Positions 3,324 to 27,530 of a stretch of 27,530 nucleotides of DNA are shown here, piece by piece. Where the stretch lies: the IMG/VR virus record IMGVR_UViG_3300012041_000057, positions 1 through 27,530 of that record; one strand, given 5' to 3'. The notes under the pieces are model-generated. The model was not told the origin of the DNA. It was given only the letters and a program-made list of their open reading frames with translations, and made no database searches. Source of the stretch: a virus (Duplodnaviria; Caudoviricetes). A program made the translations under genes and the position numbers. The stretch's first letter is position 1, and each line of letters starts with the position of its first letter.

Positions 3324-6215
3324 GTGGAAAACATCATCCGCTACGGCTACACATTTCCCATCGATGAGGAGGACGAAAATGGCCATCAGCGGTGGGATGA
3401 TCTTGGGATTGAAATGTTCATGATCCGAAAGAATCAGGGTAATCCACAGGCACTCTCGGTTCATTTTGAAAATGCCCGCAAACTTCTGTGGCCTGAATTG
3501 GACGACCACCGATGGCACCGGCTCTGCCGGGATGAAATTCTAAGTCACAAGGTTTGCGTCCTTATGGGGCCGGGAAGCTCTGGGAAAACTCACGAAGCCG
3601 CGTGGATTTCATTACTCGACTATTGGTGCTTCCCTGATGAAACTTGCGTCCTTGTTTCATCCACCGATATTCGAGGATTGAAGAAACGTGTGTGGGGTGA
3701 AATTACTGACCTGTGGGAGCGCGGTATAAATAAATACCCCAAGCTCGCTGGACACTTACTGGACAGCGCCATCGCAATCACCACAGATGACATTGAAGAC
3801 TGCGAACCAGGGAAACGAAAGATGCGCGATATGCGGAAGGGAATTTTCGGGGTCCCATGTTTTCCTTTTGGAACTTTAGTTGACACTCCTTCTGGAACAA
3901 TCCCAATCGAAGCCGTAAGGGAAGGCGATCTAGTTCTGAATGCTTGTGGCATTGGAGTGGTGACGCGAACCCATGAAAGCGTAGCTCCAAGATTGGTAAG
4001 AGTCACTTTGTCAGACGGCAGGATTATTGATTGCACGGAAAACCATCCTTTTTTTACCGACCGGGGATGGGTTAATTCAATTGACCTCGAGGCTTGCGAT
4101 ATGGTATTTTCGGCGCATGAAACTTTGCGCATCATGCAATCGCCCGATTGGCCCGGGTTATCCAAACAGAAAACACTGCTCGAAGACCTGCCGCATTTTT
4201 GCATGGGAAAAGAAAAAGTGTGTCCATTGCGGAAATCTATTCCGGCCAGCCAAACGCTCGGCAGGCAGATTTTGCAGCACGGCCTGCGCTGGAATATGGG
4301 CGTCAATGAACCCGAAATGCCGGAGGTTGGTTTCAAGGAAATGCAAGCACTGTGGAAAGCAGATGGTAAAAGTTTACGCTACGAGAAAATTTTGTTCGAT
4401 TCGATGCCGGAATCAAACTCTATGGAAGCCGTGCAAGCAATGCGGGAAGGGGTTCAATTCCACAAGAGAGTCTCCAAAGAAACCAAGGACTCTTTTCTGC
4501 GGGCCATCTTGCAGGAGGAAATCGGCTGGTCGGTCGAGTGCAAGGCACCACTACAAACCCACTCAGGAGGAGATGAATGTTTGGGAATTATTCCCAACGT
4601 CAATCCTGCATCACCACATCAGGACAGGACTCAAAACTTCAGACGGGAAGTCTCATTGGTATCAACCGGACATTTCGTTCCCAAACATAAAACTTATCGT
4701 CGAGGTGGATGGAGGAATTCACAGGATACCTCAAAGGTTGAAGAAGGACAAAACAAGGACGGCGATTCTAAACAGGCTAGGGTGGAGAGTGTTAAGATTC
4801 TCGAACACTTTGGTGACGCGAGATATTCAGAGCGTGAAGGAGGTTATAGAGTCCGAAATCTTGAAGTTGACGGCCATCCCAGCTACTCAGTAAACAAGGC
4901 TATTGTTCACAACTGTGTGCAAGGTGGCAGCTTCGTAGGCCTCTCAAAATTTCTAGGTATCAAGCAAAAGCGAATGCGACTCGTCGCTGATGAAGCCAGC
5001 ATGATGGGGCAGAATTTTTTGTCAGCCTTCGCAAACCTGAACAAGAACGAGGATTTTCGAGCCATCGTGTTGGGTAATCCCAACGACCCACTTGATCCAC
5101 TTGGTCGAGCCGCCGAACCCGCAGGTGGTTGGTCGGATGATTTCATGGAGCCAACCAAAACAACCTGCTGGGATACTCGATTCATGAACGGTCGATGTGT
5201 AAATCTCATTGGAACTGATTCTTGTAACTTCGACTTTCCGGCAGACAAGCCCACGCGATACAAATACCTTATTAGTCGGGAAAAGATTGCAGATACTCTC
5301 TCCTTCTTCGCCAAGGACTCGATTGAGTTTTACTCACAGTGCGTCGGCACGATGAAGATTGGAACGATGGCCAAGCGGATATTGAGTCGTAAGATGTGCC
5401 TTCTCAATAAAGCTCAGGAGCAGGTGATTTGGGAAGGTTCTCCGAGAACCAAAGTCTATTTCGTAGATGCTGCTTATGGGGGCGACCGTTGCGTTGGCGG
5501 TTCTGCTGAATTCGGGACCGACATCAACAATGTCCAGATTCTCAGCTTCAATGAACCAAGAATTATTCCAGTGACGGTGGGTTCTGACATGGAGCCGGAA
5601 TACCAGATTGCTCACGCTGTCCGGGAGGATTGTGAGGCAGAGGATATTCCGGGTGATTCAATGGGACATGACGCTACGGGACGTGGCAGCCTTGGAACTG
5701 CTTTAGCTAAAGTCTGGAGCGCAGACACTCACCCGATTGACGCGGGCGGACGACCAACTCCCCGCCCCGTCAGTCTGGATATTACAATCCTAGATGAGCA
5801 AACCCAACAGAAGCGGCTGAAGCGTTGCGATGAGGAATATGACCGCCTGACATCGGAGTTTAATTTTCAAGTGGCTCTCGCAGTCGAGTCGGGTCAAATC
5901 AGGAATCTTCCCGAAGAAGCTCTTGAAGAATTCTCATTGCGCCGATGGACTCGCGTGAAAGGCGATAAGAAGTCGGTTGAGCCGAAGGACAAGCCGCATA
6001 CTGACCCGCAAAAGCAGGGATTCAAACAGCGCGTAGGAAGGAGTCCCGACGTATCCGATTGGGCTGCCGGGATAGTTGAGATGGCGAGGAGAAAGGGATT
6101 CATCGTGAACAAAATTGGCAAGCCTCAGGCAGAAAAGACAGATGAGGATTTCTGGGAGCGAGAACAAAAATCCCTAGACAAAACGATGGCCAGCTATCAG
6201 CTTTCACATCAATAA
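3324..6215 (+). CDS. terL: Terminase large subunit, intein-containing (963-aa precursor, 611 aa after splicing)
   Basis: Walker A GPGSSGKT, Walker B RLVADEA, coupling motif LGNP, RNase H-like nuclease motifs VYFVDAAYGGD, HDATGRG and GRSPDxxD; upstream of the portal gene. Confidence 0.93.
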   Translation: MENIIRYGYTFPIDEEDENGHQRWDDLGIEMFMIRKNQGNPQALSVHFENARKLLWPELDDHRWHRLCRDEILSHKVCVLMGPGSSGKTHEAAWISLLDYWCFPDETCVLVSSTDIRGLKKRVWGEITDLWERGINKYPKLAGHLLDSAIAITTDDIEDCEPGKRKMRDMRKGIFGVPCFPFGTLVDTPSGTIPIEAVREGDLVLNACGIGVVTRTHESVAPRLVRVTLSDGRIIDCTENHPFFTDRGWVNSIDLEACDMVFSAHETLRIMQSPDWPGLSKQKTLLEDLPHFCMGKEKVCPLRKSIPASQTLGRQILQHGLRWNMGVNEPEMPEVGFKEMQALWKADGKSLRYEKILFDSMPESNSMEAVQAMREGVQFHKRVSKETKDSFLRAILQEEIGWSVECKAPLQTHSGGDECLGIIPNVNPASPHQDRTQNFRREVSLVSTGHFVPKHKTYRRGGWRNSQDTSKVEEGQNKDGDSKQARVESVKILEHFGDARYSEREGGYRVRNLEVDGHPSYSVNKAIVHNCVQGGSFVGLSKFLGIKQKRMRLVADEASMMGQNFLSAFANLNKNEDFRAIVLGNPNDPLDPLGRAAEPAGGWSDDFMEPTKTTCWDTRFMNGRCVNLIGTDSCNFDFPADKPTRYKYLISREKIADTLSFFAKDSIEFYSQCVGTMKIGTMAKRILSRKMCLLNKAQEQVIWEGSPRTKVYFVDAAYGGDRCVGGSAEFGTDINNVQILSFNEPRIIPVTVGSDMEPEYQIAHAVREDCEAEDIPGDSMGHDATGRGSLGTALAKVWSADTHPIDAGGRPTPRPVSLDITILDEQTQQKRLKRCDEEYDRLTSEFNFQVALAVESGQIRNLPEEALEEFSLRRWTRVKGDKKSVEPKDKPHTDPQKQGFKQRVGRSPDVSDWAAGIVEMARRKGFIVNKIGKPQAEKTDEDFWEREQKSLDKTMASYQLSHQ
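4081..4116 (+). promoter_or_regulatory. Candidate internal leaderless promoter for the nested endonuclease
   Basis: TTGACC (4081-4086)-N18-TATTTT (4105-4110) with extended -10 TG at 4102-4103, 6 nt before ATG 4117; no SD. Confidence 0.55.
4117..4893 (+). CDS. Putative homing endonuclease: tandem CxxC...(F/H)CSxxC zinc-finger repeats plus Vsr/DUF559-like nuclease, nested in the +1 frame inside the intein
   Basis: 258 aa from ATG 4117 (track ORF 4027..4893). Four CxxC-x(10-16)-C(S/G)xxC modules, then PTQEE...YQPDISFPNIKLIVEVDGGIH...KDKTRTAILNRLGWRVLRFSN, the DUF559/Vsr signature. Confidence 0.88.
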   Translation: MKLCASCNRPIGPGYPNRKHCSKTCRIFAWEKKKCVHCGNLFRPAKRSAGRFCSTACAGIWASMNPKCRRLVSRKCKHCGKQMVKVYATRKFCSIRCRNQTLWKPCKQCGKGFNSTRESPKKPRTLFCGPSCRRKSAGRSSARHHYKPTQEEMNVWELFPTSILHHHIRTGLKTSDGKSHWYQPDISFPNIKLIVEVDGGIHRIPQRLKKDKTRTAILNRLGWRVLRFSNTLVTRDIQSVKEVIESEILKLTAIPATQ

Positions 6216-6220
6216 GGTTT

Positions 6221-6526
6221 ATGCTTCAACTTCGCTCCTACACCACTTTCCCGCCAGATGGTTTCTGGTATCGTGACAACAATGGCCCGGGTCGCACCTT
6301 TCCTGCCGAGGGTGGAATGCGCCATATCACTGGGCGTGTGCATGACTATCGCACGGCCAATAACTTTCCGAACAAGGATTGGGAATCCTGCTGGCGTGAC
6401 ATCGAGAACTTCACCGTCGCACGACTCAATGGCGATCCGAAGTGGGTTCAGGATACTGATGTGGCAAATTACGTGGCGCCGGTTCGCAGTCGTGGGGGCG
6501 GGTGTTGCGGGGCAAAGGTGCCGTGA
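6221..6526 (+). CDS. Hypothetical protein
   Basis: 101-aa ORF packed 5 nt after terL; ends GGGCCG. Confidence 0.7.
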   Translation: MLQLRSYTTFPPDGFWYRDNNGPGRTFPAEGGMRHITGRVHDYRTANNFPNKDWESCWRDIENFTVARLNGDPKWVQDTDVANYVAPVRSRGGGCCGAKVP

Positions 6527-6855
6527 ACCCTCTCATCGAATGGCTTGGAGAAGGCGGCGTTCCGGTCGCTCAAGAGCTGGCCGAGAGTCGCTCTAAAGCC
6601 TGCGAAGCCTGCCCTGAGAACCGGGCGCCGCGCTGGTGGGAGATAGCTCTCGATCCTATTGCGTATTGCATCCTTAGGCTTTTGGAGGTAAAGAACGCCA
6701 TGAATTTGGTTGTGGCGAACGAGGACAAATTGCATATGTGCCGCGTCTGTGGCTGCTGTAATCGTCTCAAAATCTGGACTCCACTCTCTCATATCGTGAA
6801 GCATGATGCTCCTGAAAAATTCCATGTGAACTGCTGGATTCGGAGGGAATCGTGA
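6523..6855 (+). CDS. Cys-rich putative metal-binding protein
   Basis: GTG overlaps the upstream TGA (GTGA); CEACP...CRVCGC...CW pattern. Confidence 0.7.
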   Translation: MNPLIEWLGEGGVPVAQELAESRSKACEACPENRAPRWWEIALDPIAYCILRLLEVKNAMNLVVANEDKLHMCRVCGCCNRLKIWTPLSHIVKHDAPEKFHVNCWIRRES

Positions 6856-7166
6856 TTTTCAATGGTGAAATACCTAATTCCATTGGAACTATTTTCACAG
6901 TTCCAGTGGCGACTCAGGGTGATCGTAACAGTGGTTCCGATGTTGGCTTTAACTTGTTCCGAATTGTCAATGGAACAGCCGGCACAATCACTTTCACGAT
7001 CTATCTCAATGTTAATGGACTTGATGTTCCGATTACGCCCATCAGTCGTGAATTGATTGCTGGCGCTGCCTACGATGATATTCCTGAAATCACACTTCCT
7101 GCTGGTGGTAGGATTCGCGGGATAGCGGATACTGCCGGAGTGTTTTGGACAGTGAATACGCTATGA
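6852..7166 (+). CDS. Small beta-rich protein, possibly virion-associated
   Basis: 104 aa, GTGA-coupled, alternating beta-strand pattern, lies between terL and portal. Confidence 0.65.
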   Translation: MIFNGEIPNSIGTIFTVPVATQGDRNSGSDVGFNLFRIVNGTAGTITFTIYLNVNGLDVPITPISRELIAGAAYDDIPEITLPAGGRIRGIADTAGVFWTVNTL

Positions 7167-7609
7167 GGATAATGACTCCCACTGGATTTGGTCCCGAGGT
7201 TATGACTCCGAACAGCTATGGTGACAGTCTGACGACTGCGGCGATTCTGGATCAGACCGTCACCATCAATGCCGATGTCGCTGCCGTTCCTGTAACATTC
7301 TGGACGGCCTCATCTGGCAATGCCCTGGCAGGAGCCTACATGATCGTTGTGTTTTTTGAGATTGTGTCCACGAGCCTTAACGCGGGATGCGGACTTAATC
7401 CTGATTTTACAATAGATGGCACTGCCAACTCGACTCCAGTTGCTTTCGCAGCGGGGGCTGGTCCTCTGGATGCTCTAGTGGCGGATGCGTCGTACAATAA
7501 TTCCCTGCTCGACAATGGCACCGCCGTTCAGTGGTCCTACGGCGTCACAGGTTACGTTTCGGGTACAGCCCAAGTGAGATTCAAGACCTCAATTCTAAGA
7601 CTGGCTTGA
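7163..7609 (+). CDS. Beta-rich protein, possibly virion-associated
   Basis: ATGA-coupled start at 7163; rich in A/T/G/V; immediately before portal. Confidence 0.65.
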   Translation: MRIMTPTGFGPEVMTPNSYGDSLTTAAILDQTVTINADVAAVPVTFWTASSGNALAGAYMIVVFFEIVSTSLNAGCGLNPDFTIDGTANSTPVAFAAGAGPLDALVADASYNNSLLDNGTAVQWSYGVTGYVSGTAQVRFKTSILRLA

Positions 7610-7611
7610 TT

Positions 7612-9834
7612 ATGAACTTCAAAGAACCCGGAAAAATTCTCTCCACCATCCAGTATGGAGACAACGTGGAATGGGTGAGGTCCAACAACCGCCGCAAGGT
7701 CAACGATGGATTCAATGGGGTGCCTCCGCTATCGCCAGCCGATGCCGAGAAGATGGGCGTAAAGATCAATTTCAACTCCGGAGAGATGGCGGTGCTTGGT
7801 CAACAGGCAAGGCGGCAGTATGGAAATGCTTTTGGAAAGCCGTCCAACTTCTTCAAAGTAAAGCTCCCGACTGCTCCTCCAGAAGTCCGGGTTGATTGGG
7901 AGAACAAACTGACACGACTTATCAACGAACCAATCAAAGACTCACTGGAGTATTTCGAGACGCAGTGTGAAACTTTCGCCAGTGTTGTGGCTCATGGCAT
8001 CGGTCCCAAGATGTGGCTGGATGAAGATAGCTGGCTGCCTGAGATGGTGGCCCTGGAAGATTTACGGGTTCCGACCGATACCAGGACCAGCCTCAAGAAT
8101 CTTTCGTGGTTTGCGCTCCGCAAGAAATACACTGTTGGAGAGTTGGTCCGTAAATCCGTCGGACACTGGGATGAGGGCTGGCAGAAGGAGCAGGTGTTGG
8201 CTATTCTGAAAGAATACAAGGGCGACACCACTCAAGTCACAGACAGCACGGTTTACGAGAATCCTGAGTACTGGGCTGACCTCATCAAGCAGAACGGTGG
8301 CTTTTACATCAGCGATGCCAGCCCGAGCATTCCACTCTGGCACTTCTATTTCGTAGATGAAAAAGGCCGATGGTTTTTGCGCGTAGTTGCTGCCAAGGAA
8401 TGTCGCGGTGCTGCGGCTGATAAGTTCGTTTTTGATAATGGAGAAACTCCCGTTGCTCCCAACCTTCGCCAGTTGCTCCATGTCCAGTTTGGAGACTTGA
8501 ATAGCAAGGCGCCATTCTTGTGGCATTCAGTTCGCAGCTTTGGATTACTTCTTAAAGAACCCTGCTTCTGGCTGGACATAATGAGAAATCGCGTCATGTC
8601 GCATTGCATGGAGAACATGAACATCGGATTCCGGGTGAGCAACCCAGCCGACCGTGGGCGCGTTCAAAAGCTGCAACTGATGGACAAGTTCATTCTGGAT
8701 TCCGGGGTGTCTATTATTCCAAACACCGAGCGTCATCAGATTGATGCTGGCCTGATCGAAACCACGATGGCTCAACTGAAGCAGTTGCAGGGTGAGGCAT
8801 CTGTCAGCTTCACACAGGATTTGGAGACAGGCAGCAAAAAGGAAATGACCGCCACAGAAACGATGGCTCGCGTTTCCCAAGTGAACGCTCTGATGAGTGG
8901 CCTTATTCTCAAGGCGGTCACCTACGCCAAGTTTGAGTACAAGGAAATCTGCCGAAGGCTTACCAGGAAAGGAACGGAAGACCCGGACGCGAAGGAATTT
9001 CAAGAGGCAGCCTTGCGTGAAGGCGTACCCCCAATGTTCATCGACAGCAAGCACTGGCGTATCGAGCCGGAAGTTCCGCTGGGATCGGGCAATCCAACAA
9101 TGGAGATGGCCCAAGCTCAATCGTTGATGAGCGTGCTGCCGCAATTCGCACCCGAGAAACAGGAATATGTTAAGCACATTTACGTCGAGGCCGTTACGGG
9201 CGATGCTACGATGGCGGAATTCATTGTTCCAACTGCGCCGAAGCCGGTGGTTACTGATGCGCAGACGGCGGCGCAGTTCGCATTCCCGGTGTTGATGCAG
9301 GGAGTTCCGGTCAATCTTCCTGAACGCTTCAATCCAATCGAGCAAATTACCACGCTAATGGGGATGCTGTCAGCGGCGCTTACACCAATCATGGAAGGTG
9401 CCCAGATGCCGGCCATGCAACAGGTGAATGGTTACAAGAATGTCATTGGTCATATCGCCACTCTGCTGGATCGCGTTGCCCAAGACGATCAGATGATGCC
9501 GTTCGTTACCGATGTCGCCAAGGACCTTGGAGAACTCACCAACTTCGTCAAGCAGATGGAGCGCGAAGTGATGAAGCGTGACGAGGAAATGAATCAGGCT
9601 GGTGGTGTCTCTCCCGAGGCGCAGGCCAAGATTCTGGAGACAGGCATCGTGGCCAACTTCAAGGGAAGCAAGGACGCTGAAACTCACAGCCGAAAGCTCG
9701 CGCAAAAAGAACAGCAGTTCCAGGCAAACGAAGCCCGAAAGGATGCCCAGACTGCTGCCGAGATTCAGCGCCAATTACTCAAGGCCAAGGTGGAACTTTC
9801 CACAACTCCACCACCCGCCGCTGCCGAGCAATAA
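7612..9834 (+). CDS. Portal protein (podovirus-like, with long helical C-terminus)
   Basis: 740 aa from ATG 7612, 2 nt after the upstream stop. MTATET motif of T7/P22-type head-tail connectors, Q/E/A-rich coiled-coil C-terminus, position downstream of terL. Confidence 0.82.
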   Translation: MNFKEPGKILSTIQYGDNVEWVRSNNRRKVNDGFNGVPPLSPADAEKMGVKINFNSGEMAVLGQQARRQYGNAFGKPSNFFKVKLPTAPPEVRVDWENKLTRLINEPIKDSLEYFETQCETFASVVAHGIGPKMWLDEDSWLPEMVALEDLRVPTDTRTSLKNLSWFALRKKYTVGELVRKSVGHWDEGWQKEQVLAILKEYKGDTTQVTDSTVYENPEYWADLIKQNGGFYISDASPSIPLWHFYFVDEKGRWFLRVVAAKECRGAAADKFVFDNGETPVAPNLRQLLHVQFGDLNSKAPFLWHSVRSFGLLLKEPCFWLDIMRNRVMSHCMENMNIGFRVSNPADRGRVQKLQLMDKFILDSGVSIIPNTERHQIDAGLIETTMAQLKQLQGEASVSFTQDLETGSKKEMTATETMARVSQVNALMSGLILKAVTYAKFEYKEICRRLTRKGTEDPDAKEFQEAALREGVPPMFIDSKHWRIEPEVPLGSGNPTMEMAQAQSLMSVLPQFAPEKQEYVKHIYVEAVTGDATMAEFIVPTAPKPVVTDAQTAAQFAFPVLMQGVPVNLPERFNPIEQITTLMGMLSAALTPIMEGAQMPAMQQVNGYKNVIGHIATLLDRVAQDDQMMPFVTDVAKDLGELTNFVKQMEREVMKRDEEMNQAGGVSPEAQAKILETGIVANFKGSKDAETHSRKLAQKEQQFQANEARKDAQTAAEIQRQLLKAKVELSTTPPPAAAEQ

Positions 9835-10079
9835 ATGATTGACATCTTCAAGTGAATCTGGGAGGGTGGTCCGTGTGAACGCATGGCGGAAAGAACGCAT
9901 CTCAATAAGTCCAGAAAAGAGTTGGATTCCAGGACATCACGTAAAATCCATGCAGGCATCGACTCCTGCTGCGGTCACCTCGGCAGTCAATTGCGGGTCT
10001 TGTATTTTTTCAACCGCTAAAGCGCGATTCGGTGGGCTAACTACCCGCATCATGTCGTTGCTGCTGCCGGTTTAATTTT

Positions 10080-10226
10080 ATGAAAATTCTGTTCGACCAC
10101 ATTCGCCCCGTCATCATCACGGCGATGATCTGTCTAACCGCTTATCTTTGCGTCCGCGAAATCTGCTTCTCGATGGTGGCAATCAATGGGCTGTTGGTTG
10201 GAAAGGCGTTGACGGTGAAGAAATGA
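10080..10226 (+). CDS. Small membrane protein (48 aa)
   Basis: MKILFDHIRPVIITAMICLTAYLCVREICFSMVAINGLLVGKALTVKK; below the track cutoff; ATGA-coupled to the next gene. Confidence 0.5.
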   Translation: MKILFDHIRPVIITAMICLTAYLCVREICFSMVAINGLLVGKALTVKK

Positions 10227-22152: not shown

Positions 22153-22199
22153 CACCCCATGAGATAGTTATTGACACTGAGCGGTGAAACATGCAGACT
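22149..22199 (+). promoter_or_regulatory. Promoter with tandem TTGACA boxes
   Basis: TTGACA at 22149 and 22171; the second is followed by N17-CAGACT, 10 nt before ATG 22210. Confidence 0.55.
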
Positions 22200-22209
22200 C
22201 TTAAAGAAT

Positions 22210-22824
22210 ATGACAACGATCCAACCAACGAGAGAAGTTGCAATCAAAGTAAATCGGCTTTTGAGCCACGGTCTGGTAAAGGGAATGGGGGTTCAAGAAC
22301 CCGGCAAAATGTGTATTGAGGCTGCTGTGTGCTGTGCCCTTGGCCTCCCACATTCCGACGATCCGGCATGCGTCTCACGCGCTGTTCGTTCCTTCAAAAT
22401 CACACTCAACGACGCCAATTGGTCGGGCAATATAGCCCGAGCGAAAGGCTTGCAAAGGATGGCAGTCGCCCAGCTTGGCAGCGACGGAATAGACGAATCT
22501 CTGTTCGTCAAAGAACTGGCCTTGTCATGTGTTCGCAAGATTGTTCCAATTGCGCTCCGAGCGGCTGCAAGGCTTCAAAACACAGAGCATTGTGAAAAGC
22601 TCAATGCGGAGGCTTTGAAGTGTGAAGCGGCCACAGTGGATAATATGAAAGACGCTGCTTACTCTGCTGCTCGCGCTGCTGGCGCTGCTGCTTACTCTGC
22701 TGCTGACGCTGCTGACGCTGCTGCTGACGAAGTTCTTTCACTCATGGCTGAATGTGGAGTTGAAGCCCTGATTAAGTGCAAATCACCGGGCTGTGAATGG
22801 TTGGATGTTTGCAAACCTTTTTAA
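22210..22824 (+). CDS. Hypothetical protein with Ala-rich xAA repeats
   Basis: MCIEAAV...HSDDPACV...LND N-terminus; DAAYSAARAAGAAAYSAADAADAAAD tract. Confidence 0.8.
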   Translation: MTTIQPTREVAIKVNRLLSHGLVKGMGVQEPGKMCIEAAVCCALGLPHSDDPACVSRAVRSFKITLNDANWSGNIARAKGLQRMAVAQLGSDGIDESLFVKELALSCVRKIVPIALRAAARLQNTEHCEKLNAEALKCEAATVDNMKDAAYSAARAAGAAAYSAADAADAAADEVLSLMAECGVEALIKCKSPGCEWLDVCKPF

Positions 22825-22825
22825 T

Positions 22826-23044
22826 ATGACCGACAATTTCATTTTGAAACAACGCATGGTTCGCCGTCTCAAGGCGACGGACGCAGGAAATGGGAGGCCG
22901 ATGACCTGCGATGCAATCGCCAGGGAGATGGGCCTGTCGACTGGCAAGAGCGCACACTATTACGCGGGCGACATGAAAGGCCGGTGTCCGTGTTGTTGCA
23001 GGCCATTAGTGAAGATCACGGCAAGAAAAGAAATCAAATTATGA
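22826..23044 (+). CDS. HTH protein with C-terminal Cys cluster
   Basis: MTCDAIAREMGLSTGKSAHYY, then CPCC. Confidence 0.65.
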   Translation: MTDNFILKQRMVRRLKATDAGNGRPMTCDAIAREMGLSTGKSAHYYAGDMKGRCPCCCRPLVKITARKEIKL

Positions 23045-23853
23045 GTAATGAAACCACCACCGCAGTCGTCAAGGCTGCCCCACGAGAGGTCAAAATCGTC
23101 CAAGACAACAGCGAGATTGCCTATTTGATGGACTCGGCCCGCTTTGAACACGTCTATCGCATCGCCGGCGCCATGGCTCGCGCCAGCCTGATCCCCAAGC
23201 ACCTCAAGGGTGACAGCTTCGAGCAAACCCAGGCAAATTGCTTCCTGGTCGTCAACCAAGCAATGCGCTGGAGGCTTGACCCATTCGCCATCGTTCCCGA
23301 GACTTACGAGGTGGGTGGGAAGCTGGCGTTTCAAGGCAAGCTGGTGGCAGCGGTCATAAACGCTCGTGGTGGCCTTGCAGAGCGCCTAAGCTACACTTTT
23401 AACGACGCCAAGGGCGACGGGCTGGAGGTGACGGTATCGGGCAGGCTGGAGGGCGAAGAAAAGGCCAGAACCGTCACTGTGAATGTCGGGCAGGCCAAGA
23501 CGACGAATCAGATGTGGTCAAAAGACCCTCACCAAAAGCTGATCTACACTGGGGCTGTAAAGTGGGCACGACGGCACAAGCCAGAGGTGATTTTGGGGGT
23601 GCTGACCGACGACGACGCTGAGGTTATTCGTGAGGAACAGCGGTTTATCGCAGCGACCCCAATAATCAAGACACCAGAGTTCCCCGAGCCACCCATGCTG
23701 ACCGCGCCAACCCCTGCCGCCAAGCGCAAGAGTGCCGAAAAGGCACCTGAACCGATGGTTGCGACTCCAAAACCAGAAACCGATTCTATTCCACCTAAGG
23801 AAACCAATGATGGCCGAGACGAATCAAGATCGGAAAGGAAGGTGGATTTATGA
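23041..23853 (+). CDS. recT: RecT/Red-beta-like single-strand annealing protein
   Basis: IPKHLKG...ANCFLVVNQAMRWRLDPFAI...GKLAFQGKLVAAVIN...WSKDPHQKLIY...WARRHKPEVILGV; ATGA-coupled. Confidence 0.85.
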   Translation: MSNETTTAVVKAAPREVKIVQDNSEIAYLMDSARFEHVYRIAGAMARASLIPKHLKGDSFEQTQANCFLVVNQAMRWRLDPFAIVPETYEVGGKLAFQGKLVAAVINARGGLAERLSYTFNDAKGDGLEVTVSGRLEGEEKARTVTVNVGQAKTTNQMWSKDPHQKLIYTGAVKWARRHKPEVILGVLTDDDAEVIREEQRFIAATPIIKTPEFPEPPMLTAPTPAAKRKSAEKAPEPMVATPKPETDSIPPKETNDGRDESRSERKVDL

Positions 23854-24421: not shown

Positions 24422-24438
24422 AATCAAACGATTAAGCT

Positions 24439-24762
24439 ATGCGCTTTCGTATATTAGCCCTAACTCTCGCTGCCTTAATCGGCAGCCCAGCGGCATACTC
24501 CGACGAGCAACCGCCCAAGTCAGAGTCGTGGCTGGCCATCTGCGTCGTCGCTGTTTGCGGAGTCCAAGATGCACCCGCACAGCATCCAGACCCCACCAAC
24601 CGGGTTGAGCTTGCCGCGAGCGAGCCGTTAAAGATCAAAGTCCAAGCCTCTCAGGATGGCAGGAATTGGGCTACAGTCAACGAGCAGGTTTGTGACTTGG
24701 AAGATTTCGTTTATTACCCGACGAACGCCGCAATGTATCGGTTGGAGGTGAGAATAAGATGA
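24439..24762 (+). CDS. Secreted protein
   Basis: Sec-type signal peptide MRFRILALTLAALIGSPAAYS; C-terminal VQASQDGRNW...YRL motif. Confidence 0.7.
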   Translation: MRFRILALTLAALIGSPAAYSDEQPPKSESWLAICVVAVCGVQDAPAQHPDPTNRVELAASEPLKIKVQASQDGRNWATVNEQVCDLEDFVYYPTNAAMYRLEVRIR

Positions 24763-25323
24763 GCGACTGCGCCCCATCCAAACCGCCCGAACTCGCCCGC
24801 AGCGTCGCGGCTCGGCTGACTGCGAAAATCGAACGCGAACTCGGCCAGATAGCTGCCGGTCCAACGGAAATCAATCGAGGCTACTGGGCTTACAACTCTG
24901 ACGTGTTCCGCTGGTGCGTGGCCATCAACGAGGACGGCCATCAACGCTACTACGGCTGCTCGACCGCGATGGTGAACTGCCTCAAAGGAAAACTCACTCG
25001 CTGGAAAAACAGAGGCCACGGCGAGTGGGAGATAATCGTAGAGCACGTCCGCAGGCGGAGAGGGTGTCCGACCTGCGAAAGAATATCGGCGGCACTGGCG
25101 GAAAGCTCATTCGCTCCAGCGACCTTGTTAGAAGGCGTGGAACGGGCGCTCACAAAAATCAATGAAGCCGAGGGATACTTGCTACTCGGGAAAATCGCCA
25201 GTGGTAAAAACATGCTTGGAGACGGCAAGGCCATTCTTGAGAAAGTGGTAGAGCGGTGGCCCACGTCTTCTGGAAGATTTCGTTTATTACCCGACGAACG
25301 CCGCAATGTATCGGTTGGAGGTG
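24698..25323. repeat. 53-bp perfect direct repeat (24698-24750, 25271-25323)
   Basis: TGGAAGATTTCGTTTATTACCCGACGAACGCCGCAATGTATCGGTTGGAGGTG occurs twice. Confidence 0.97.
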
Positions 25324-25799: not shown

Positions 25800-27023
25800 A
25801 TGGACGATCTAAAGCAAGACACGCTCGACTCGAAAGCAGTGCCAGCCGAAGCCCTGGAGCGCATGGTTAGACCGCTGACACACCACGAAGAATCTGCCGG
25901 GTTGGTTTCAGCCAGCAAGTTTGAGATGGTTGCCGCCTGTGAGGGGCAACCTCAATTCGAGGCGCAATTGCGAGAACAACTCATGATCGAAGAACTTCCT
26001 GCTGACGAGCAGGCCGAGCGTGGAATTAGAATTCACCGCGCCTGGGAAACCAATGACACATCTGGACTATCTGAAGAAGAGATTGCCGATTTCGAGCGCA
26101 CCAAGGAGATTGACTTGGAACTGATGGACCAGTGGCTTAACGATAAAGGCCCAATTGATGTCGATAAGACCGAGGAGCGTCTTTGGCTTAGGGATGACGA
26201 CGGAAATGGACTCGCATCCGGACGTTACGACCGGCTCTCCATCTCTGGCCACCATGCCTTCGTACGCGATCTCAAAAGTGGCTGGTGCAAGCGCCTCACT
26301 CCATCACAGCAGTCTTGGCAGCTTCGTTTACTTGCTGTGCTGGTCTGGTTGGAATACGGACCACGATATGGCTTCGAGAGTGTCCGCGTGGCATTCGTGA
26401 AGCCGAAGCTTCGCAACGCTACCGACGTTGCAGAATACTCACTTAATGACCTGCATCGCAGCATGGTGTCGGTGCGACAAATCCTTTGGCGATCACAACA
26501 GCCCGATGTGAAGAGACAGGCTGGCGACCATTGTTTCTATTGCGTGTGTCGCAAGTGGTGCCGCGAAGCCGCCGCTTACTCCATGCTCCCCTCCGTCATT
26601 GCCGGGGCGCAATCGCCAGTCAAGAAGGCTGAGGTCGAGATCATGGTTCAGCGCTTGACGCCAGCCGACTGGGTGAAAATCCATCAAGTTGGCACGATGA
26701 CGGCGAACATTGTGGCTGAGGCGAGACGATGTTTGAAGACCCTCACTGCCGACGATCTGCGGAAGTTTGGACTTCAAGTAGGCGAAGGTCGACGCTTGGA
26801 TCCCATCACGAATGTCATCGGCGCTTACAAGGCATTGGAGCACTCTTTACCACCAGAAGCCCTGTGGGATTGCCTCTCATTCGAGAAGGGCAAGATTGTG
26901 GAGGCCGTTCAGACCTCCACAAACATGACCAAGAAAGACGCACAGCAATGGGTCAGAGAAACCTTGTCGCCGTTTGTGACTGAGGAGAGGGCGAGCGGGA
27001 GTTTGGAGGAGACTGACGATTAG
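25800..27023 (+). CDS. Cas4-like PD-(D/E)XK exonuclease (DUF2800-like), probable RecT partner
   Basis: SASK...C, ERGIRIH, TEERL, SGRYD, VRDLKSG, QLRLLA, CFYC...C; ATG 1 nt after the upstream stop. Confidence 0.85.
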   Translation: MDDLKQDTLDSKAVPAEALERMVRPLTHHEESAGLVSASKFEMVAACEGQPQFEAQLREQLMIEELPADEQAERGIRIHRAWETNDTSGLSEEEIADFERTKEIDLELMDQWLNDKGPIDVDKTEERLWLRDDDGNGLASGRYDRLSISGHHAFVRDLKSGWCKRLTPSQQSWQLRLLAVLVWLEYGPRYGFESVRVAFVKPKLRNATDVAEYSLNDLHRSMVSVRQILWRSQQPDVKRQAGDHCFYCVCRKWCREAAAYSMLPSVIAGAQSPVKKAEVEIMVQRLTPADWVKIHQVGTMTANIVAEARRCLKTLTADDLRKFGLQVGEGRRLDPITNVIGAYKALEHSLPPEALWDCLSFEKGKIVEAVQTSTNMTKKDAQQWVRETLSPFVTEERASGSLEETDD

Positions 27024-27032
27024 TGTACGATT

Positions 27033-27119
27033 ATGGGATACTGCAAAGACTGTAAATTTCGAGACGCGGAGAATGCAACCCCGACGACCTCGTGGTGGCC
27101 TAACGGTCGGGATCAGTGA
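27033..27119 (+). CDS. Very short or truncated ORF ending inside the attC-like site
   Basis: MGYCKDCKFRDAENATPTTSWWPNGRDQ; CxxC start suggests a truncated gene. Confidence 0.4.
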   Translation: MGYCKDCKFRDAENATPTTSWWPNGRDQ

Positions 27120-27208
27120 CCCGGCGCGAAAACCAAAATCTAAAATATGCCAACAATTCATCAAACTGCCCAACACTCCGCCGGGTTCACTGCATCCCGT
27201 GGTTCGGC
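27098..27208 (-). mobile_element. attC-like recombination site A (inverted relative to the genes)
   Basis: Minus strand: GCCGAAC-CACGG-GATGCAGTGAACCCGGCG...CGCCGGGTCACTGATC-CCGACC-GTTAGGC; a 19-bp arm pairing with two single extrahelical bases. Confidence 0.75.
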
Positions 27209-27437
27209 ACTGCTACCGTGTCCGTTCTGCGGTGGTGAAGCTGAATCCGACATGCAGCAAGCCTTCCGCACACTCTCTGGCGGATACCTGTCAAACGCCG
27301 TCGCGATCTACTGCACTAAATGCACGGCCCAAGTCAGCATGTGCCACGACGACCACAAGGAATACGCGCCAGAAGACCTGATGACGATACTCGCCGAGGC
27401 GTGGAATCTGCGTGTGCCTAACGAAAAGGTCAGCTAA
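27147..27437 (+). CDS. Lar-family (restriction alleviation-like) zinc-ribbon protein
   Basis: LLPCPFCGGEA...IYCTKC...AEAWNLR signature. Confidence 0.8.
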   Translation: MPTIHQTAQHSAGFTASRGSALLPCPFCGGEAESDMQQAFRTLSGGYLSNAVAIYCTKCTAQVSMCHDDHKEYAPEDLMTILAEAWNLRVPNEKVS

Positions 27438-27530
27438 GTGGCTGGCCGGAAAGACCAAATGCACCCAACTGAATTTGAACGCCGGGCGAAGCAATTCGCG
27501 TCCGAAAAACCCAAGAGCGAAGCCACTTTA
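27416..27530 (-). mobile_element. attC-like site B, truncated by the window end
   Basis: Plus strand GCCTAAC-GAAAAGG-TCAGCTAAGTGGCT...AGCCACTTTA at 27521-27530 (complement of TAAGTGGCT with one extra T, as in site A). Confidence 0.6.
27459..27530 (+). CDS. Partial CDS starting in the loop of site B
   Basis: ATG 27459, MHPTEFERRAKQFASEKPKSEATL..., open to the window edge. Confidence 0.45.
   Translation, partial: MHPTEFERRAKQFASEKPKSEATL

Follow-up and report, generated by a model that had tools for sequence, protein, structure and literature searches.

Why a phage gene should be enclosed by two hairpins that resemble integron recombination sites, and yet be read from the strand opposite to that of an integron cassette, is the question raised by the 3' end of a viral record of 27,530 bases, which was analyzed in full (the window) and is approximately 49% complete. 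Integron cassettes are regarded as promoterless genes located on the top strand, upstream of their attC, whereas the gene considered here lies on the bottom strand and starts inside its site. On the basis of our analysis, we conclude that the unit is an attC-bounded cassette that is reversed and adapted to phage, and as such a variant of integrons. We are confident that it represents the first unit of a phage-borne, integron-type array, in which the genes lie opposite to the bacterial strand and the units are likely exchanged by the integron integrase (IntI) at AAC. This unit likely belongs to a widespread phage gene-swapping system, whose probable driver is an integron integrase; genes for such an enzyme are present in some related phages. 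The features needed for the argument are as follows:

22984-23853: RecT-like gene (profile match)
25800-27023, + strand: gene for a PD-(D/E)XK exonuclease, directly upstream of the array
27033-27119, + strand: 28-codon ORF, in which the R' box of site A is translated as Pro-Asn and whose stop lies in the left arm
27098-27208, + strand (here the bottom strand): site A, a complete attC (hairpin detector, covariance model, independent contig)
27104-27421, + strand: predicted cassette of 318 bp, crossover to crossover (attC geometry and tail breakpoints in relatives)
27147-27437, + strand: Lar-like zinc-ribbon protein of 96 amino acids (PF14354, phrog_599)
27416-27530, + strand: site B, truncated where the contig stops (with R' box, left arm, loop and first 10 nt of the right arm)
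27459-27530, + strand: opening 24 codons of a further, presumed cassette gene (ORF open at the contig end)

Structure and strand of the two sites

Site A is 111 nt long and ends in GCCTAAC and GTTCGGC. Every element of the design described in the earlier note (111 bp, these two ends, 19-bp arms and two extra bases) was found again. The R' box (27098-27104) agrees exactly with the RYYYAAC half of the consensus, and the R'' box (27202-27208) differs from GTTRRRY at one position. The hairpin has an L box and central spacers of 6 and 5 nt, three bases of which are able to pair, and these add to 16 inner pairs to give 19 in total. The right arm carries two single extra bases, C27193 and T27186/7, which are extrahelical at arm positions 4 and 10-11, and the ATG at 27147 lies in the loop. 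According to the available part of PMC5027507, cleavage of the attC bottom strand falls between A and C in the AAC of R', and the opposite arm carries the extra bases, near L''. Crossover in site A is therefore predicted between A27103 and C27104.

Site A is the sole attC-like hairpin that our detector finds in the window (score 14, runner-up 6.5), the top score on 100 order-1 shuffles of the window being 10. A covariance model, which we built ourselves from 71 sites drawn from bacterial genome loci only, matches site A with 55.5 bits (E approximately 2e-11) on the strand that the earlier note had predicted and on that strand only, with the next match at 8.1; this score is not fully independent because the pattern that fetched the bacterial training loci was partly modelled on site A. 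In the alignment underlying the model, 92.6% of cells pair, compared to 27-45% in slid controls, in part by construction because the training sites were chosen for hairpins. The model recovers TJE1_attC2, which is recombined by IntI1, on its published bottom strand. Moreover, the hairpin detector recovers all three TJE1 sites, with the strand as published for the two that have been cloned, and gives no convincing site on P12002L. A contig from a second study spans 27073-27231 with 0 differences from the window. The layout of site A, together with a model match on the + strand alone, therefore indicates that the bottom strand, on which attC recombines, is here the coding strand of the phage, and the proposal that the extra bases place the site on the strand opposite to the usual one is upheld. 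Judged by sequence and structure, site A is a real attC, for which recombination itself is a prediction.

The presence of stop and start codons inside the structure would also be expected if these hairpins acted as RNA, in the regulation of translation or transcription, and their likeness to attC were accidental. Such a chance likeness is hard to reconcile with a 55.5-bit match of site A to a model of bacterial sites. In addition, no terminator-like hairpin was found on the + strand at either site, and an Rfam scan of the window gave nothing at either site and one weak, unrelated match elsewhere. We regard this explanation as the least credible of those considered here. A Shine-Dalgarno motif was sought in the loop of site A and is absent, the leader being A-rich.

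The claim that site B repeats the design of site A holds for the R' box, for the left arm and for the 10 nt with which the right arm begins, where 27521-27530 pairs with 27435-27443 (9 pairs and one extra T), but the covariance model gives no match to the site as truncated at 27530. The left arm contains the TAA of the Lar-like gene and the loop contains the ATG at 27459. No extension beyond 27530 was obtained, as the best-matching run stops at this base too and a metagenome scan yielded one record, equal in length to the window. Sites in relatives that start like site B are 74-131 nt long, and the full size of site B would be approximately 135 nt. The inventory of the window accordingly consists of one complete attC (site A) and one cut site (site B). 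The protein records P0001 and P0029 come from a contig of 27,848 bases, which exceeds the window by 318, the size of the predicted cassette; this agreement may be coincidence.

The predicted cassette and its relatives

The protein encoded by the gene between the two sites matches PF14354 with 39.9 bits (curated cut-off 28.6) and phrog_599 with an E value of 1e-9. On these profile matches it is a member of the restriction alleviation family (PF14354), to which a role in alleviation is ascribed by the family name. The ATG at 27147 is the sole ATG, GTG or TTG ahead of codon 36, is preceded by an in-frame TAA two codons upstream, and is the only common start that retains the first CxxC. Approximately 20 residues at the start of the protein are encoded by the loop and right arm of site A, and its last 4 residues and stop are supplied by site B. 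Both loop ATGs of the earlier reading (27147 and 27459) were confirmed, and translation also gives the peptides PNGRDQ and PNEKVS, each followed directly by its stop (27117-27119 and 27435-27437). Consequently, the picture of the cassette as a coding core with signals supplied by the sites stands for the tail and stop, which come from the next site, but not for the other end, as the unit carries its own site A and start. The predicted cassette comprises site A and the Lar-like gene through its Asn codon, with the start inside and the stop outside. Its R'' matches the far R' at 3 of 4 bases, and its own R' equally well. The 28-codon ORF at 27033-27119, for which a PHROG search gave no match, may possibly derive from a gene that was shortened when the array was founded.

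Relatives of the gene locate the breakpoints. Alignment of 19 of the 20 homologs found shows a conserved core with heads and tails that vary. Within the 90% cluster of the Lar-like gene, all five members keep the core to ...WNLRVPN and then continue into five different tails, P0024 also retaining the head; in a second cluster, a shared core runs to ...RAAN in all four members and the tails differ. Asn is present at the crossover position in 13 of the 19 aligned homologs and absent in 6. When homolog tails are compared with a profile of site left arms, 14 of the 23 that can be scored lie above the 95th percentile of the control and 9 lie below. These are comparisons at the level of protein, which include no DNA of close gene relatives. 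At that level, tails switch exactly after AAC/Asn, as had been anticipated for gene-content breakpoints in related phages. Exchange appears to be recent in this lineage because the proteins of a single 90% cluster have five different neighbors. As in the classical integron cassette, the unit appears to move as one block between two AAC crossover points, on the basis of the protein-level tail breakpoints and array-wide signatures. The Lar-like protein has no match in GenBank phages, an alignment-based scan for its relatives found one distant locus, and a hairpin scan of 80 distant Lar loci gave 2 matches, neither of which is attC-like, with no attC site in the 9 of these loci that were rescanned.

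We propose that IntI would excise 27104-27421 as a single-stranded circle, which would then reinsert at another attC or at attI. The moved gene would retain its start and head and gain a new short tail and stop from the neighboring site, where a stop would usually follow after a few codons, since phages of this group translate AAC in a single fixed frame, as Asn. Cassette genes might be transcribed from the upstream phage recombination/replication operon (RecT, exonuclease) rather than from an integron Pc, and this would explain why the gene strand is reversed.

A search of viral contigs gave no close relative of the exonuclease at 25800-27023. Several other features of the window were observed. 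A 53-nt exact direct repeat (24698-24750 and 25271-25323, 573 bases apart) is located near the ends of two adjacent ORFs and forms a separate contig of higher depth in run X1. Short-period repeats at 22654-22731 encode an Ala-rich stretch of the ORF at 22171-22824, and the ORF of 963 amino acids at 3324-6215 has weak Hint/intein matches below the cut-off and a weak helicase match.

Gene orientation and site reuse across arrays

One search pattern returned at least 120 viral and at least 132 bacterial stretches, with flanks for 80 of each. Among the matches listed, 80 of 119 viral loci and 86 of 130 bacterial ones contain sites according to the hairpin detector. Genes lie mostly on the bottom strand in 16 of the decidable viral loci and mostly on the top strand in none, with one tie; the corresponding numbers for bacterial loci are 1 and 22, again with one tie. 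The reversed orientation noticed at this locus is, among the matches listed, systematic in phages (16 versus 0) and nearly absent in bacteria (1 versus 22).

The codons built into the sites follow the same division. Of 130 sites in phage arrays, 104 have an AAC that the longest open frame from upstream translates as Asn (the remaining 26 comprise 9 and 2 in the other frames and 15 in none), although TAA in the box often closes one of the three frames. The upstream frame stops within the site at 101 of these 104. The Asn frame is not universal, as a second viral site family is, among the matches listed, often in other frames. A loop ATG opens at least 50 codons at 83 of 130 phage sites versus 7 of 67 bacterial sites. 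In addition, 162 of 202 viral segments have an R'' that matches the R' found where the next gene ends, and 32 of 202 one that matches the R' of its own hairpin (shuffled mean 10); in bacterial arrays the far R' is matched in 64 of 82 cases. Such matching is the hallmark of units that have existed as circles.

Sites are also reused. Near-identical site pairs with a single flank in common number 6, and in all of them it is the downstream one; both flanks are shared in 28 other pairs, neither in 215, and 3 are intermediate. The 215 pairs that share neither flank can be read as one site attached through its GTT box to unrelated cores, R'' being matched each time to the far end of the new gene. One pair from the records G001 and G003, for example, is near-identical from just within the left box to GTT and unrelated beyond. 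The region at L455:7232 and the stretch L457:8787-8899 carry, in two phages, one site and head peptide on unrelated genes, identity stopping at the GTT box. Approximately 17 reversed cassettes are present at L257:1773-8000, in a record of 46.6 kb with no IntI above the cut-off, and the cargo of the G003 array includes DNA methylases and Mom.

Many sites are near-identical across phages, RecT and exonuclease genes lie just upstream of the present array, and the context in G001 is alike, with ERF and YqaJ genes upstream of its array. The arms could on these grounds be short homology blocks for RecT/exonuclease recombination between phages instead of IntI substrates. Homology blocks of this kind, however, would not pin the break at AAC, nor would they preserve two extra bases on one arm or the R''/far-R' match seen in 162 of 202 segments, and arrays adjoin IntI in integron geometry. 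Recombination through homologous arms is thus a very improbable account, and exchange by IntI at AAC is the reading that we retain.

Integrases, attI-like motifs and known systems

No tyrosine recombinase was found in the 27,530-base window of this record, of which about half is represented, and no attI-like motif there is significant. The earlier note was correct that the window lacks an integrase, but a host IntI is not required, as related phages encode their own IntI downstream of arrays. G001, whose site is the closest to site A among the matches listed (55 of 64 arm bases), and G003 both have an IntI above the TIGR02249 cut-off; G002, G004 and G005 have none. In G001 and G003, intI is located downstream of the array on the same strand as the genes, which is the side on which the present contig ends. 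The IntI of G003 matches PDB 2a3v (VchIntIA) with an E value of 4e-42, the next match being at 2e-20, and capsid, portal or terminase genes identify G003, L480 and L512 as phages.

When the G003 protein was used as a query, 47 viral IntI loci were obtained, a number that includes duplicates of one phage, with sites at 33 and none at 14. At least two sites lie upstream of intI, all on the intI strand, at 25 of the 47, and genes at the viral loci are mostly on the bottom strand in 16 cases and on the top strand in 1. Six of the seven distinct bacterial IntI loci with sites likewise have the array upstream of intI, arranged just as the phage arrays are; only the genes are therefore reversed. The array of the seventh, L331, is downstream and on the other strand. 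An attI-like motif that begins with AAC is found 23-65 nt ahead of the intI start at 23 of 25 loci examined. This motif scores outside its training set in L204, L267 and L277, but not in G001, and a by-eye comparison suggests that it resembles the reverse complement of the Shewanella attI given in the available part of PMC9892861. At L277:4086-4127 (G005, 97% complete), an attI-like motif is located at the downstream end of the array and no IntI match was obtained for the record, perhaps because the integrase has been lost. A 'phage clade' of IntI is weak because the tree was made by a quick method, with 7 bacterial rows and a viral-only search; a further 1153 close homologs are without context.

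Two candidates were set aside. The stretch 24430-24455, which overlaps the ATG of the ORF at 24439-24762, shares 24 of 26 bases with a stretch before intI in L473, but its score as attI falls within the shuffle range and AAC at the correct spacing is missing. Phage Rctr41k (L518, KX853513) has, at 4680-10101, an IntI-like gene annotated as xerD with several attC-like sites downstream; it was excluded as a case of a reversed array, the model and the detector being in conflict over the strand.

Records reached via the site patterns have, among the matches listed, an IntI above the cut-off in 3 of 54 cases and a partial copy in 1 of 54, and 1 of 13 near-complete records has one. Most carriers therefore either borrow the enzyme or are inactive, because so few of them encode it. 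For this phage, we favor an integrase that acts in trans, from the host or another phage; that the phage has its own integrase beyond the contig end is less likely, at roughly one chance in three. The array could also be a frozen relic, with true attC sites on which no integrase now acts and hairpins kept for their start and stop codons, as the contig has neither integrase nor attI, the R'' match of this cassette is imperfect, the 28-codon upstream ORF resembles a leftover and the majority of near-complete carriers lack IntI. Nevertheless, site A is intact, with 19 pairs and both extra bases, and five different neighbors within one 90% protein cluster speak for recent exchange, which makes a relic unlikely and leaves the array as one whose units are likely exchanged by IntI.

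Integrons, as well as clusters of attC without an integrase (CALINs), have been described in phage genomes by Qi et al. 2023, and the available part of that article (PMC9892861) reports complete integrons of Vibrio, Shewanella and class 1 types and recombination by IntI1 of 5 of 6 phage attC sites tested. As here, the phage arrays described there have attC between small phage genes, and those genes are often methylases. The same portion of PMC9892861 does not describe bottom-strand genes, starts in the loop or tails from the next site, which are features of the present array. TJE1, as presented there, has the classical orientation, unlike this array, and MW202573 (Fig. 2D of PMC9892861) is reversed according to our covariance model, on which that portion of the text makes no comment. 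In a literature search with little coverage of subscription journals, Qi et al. 2023 was the only paper identified on attC in phage genomes, and none was found on the reversed phage cassette design. Further literature, also available in part, comprises PMC8618304 and 10.64898/2026.03.17.712381.

Comparison with sedentary chromosomal integrons, with the attC anatomy taken from Nivina et al. 2016 (PMC5027507), reveals shared site geometry, a crossover at AAC that is predicted here, and R''/far-R' matching. In phage loci with intI, as in bacterial ones, the array is upstream of intI and the intI strand is also the bottom strand of the sites. In phage arrays, however, the genes are on the other strand, co-oriented with intI and running towards it, the site heads the gene, and an attI-like motif lies just 23-65 nt before the intI start, which would leave no space for the usual Pc/Pint region. 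Co-orientation of intI with cassette genes is also seen in the Treponema inverted-integrase integrons, on the part of Cury et al. 2016 (10.1101/030866) available and if the Treponema genes follow the classical layout. In Treponema it is intI that is flipped relative to attC, whereas in phages the relation of intI to the sites is the usual one and it is the genes that are reversed. Recombination sites also aid cassette translation through signals known from attI1 and attC (ORF-11 and short ORFs in attC; PMC8876359, in the part available), but those signals are short helper ORFs on the top strand, while here the cassette protein itself spans from the loop to the next site on the bottom strand.

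A more tentative proposal, which we put at somewhat below an even chance, is that tailed phages run their own mirror-image integrons, with an IntI lineage of their own, a compact attI located just ahead of intI, and a common cassette pool in which a few reusable attC sites serve as plug-in translation starts. If this is true, the arrays are places of cassette formation and offer a handle on the origin of cassettes. More generally, phages use integron recombination sites with the genes reversed, and the sites themselves contain the start and stop codons; an integrase and an attI-like site are additionally carried by some phages. Since a reversed cassette in a bacterial integron would point away from Pc, the cassette pools of the two are predicted to be largely separate. 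If active, such arrays would provide a site-specific path to the mosaicism of phage accessory genes, and the reuse of one site on unrelated genes offers concrete material for studying how cassettes arise.
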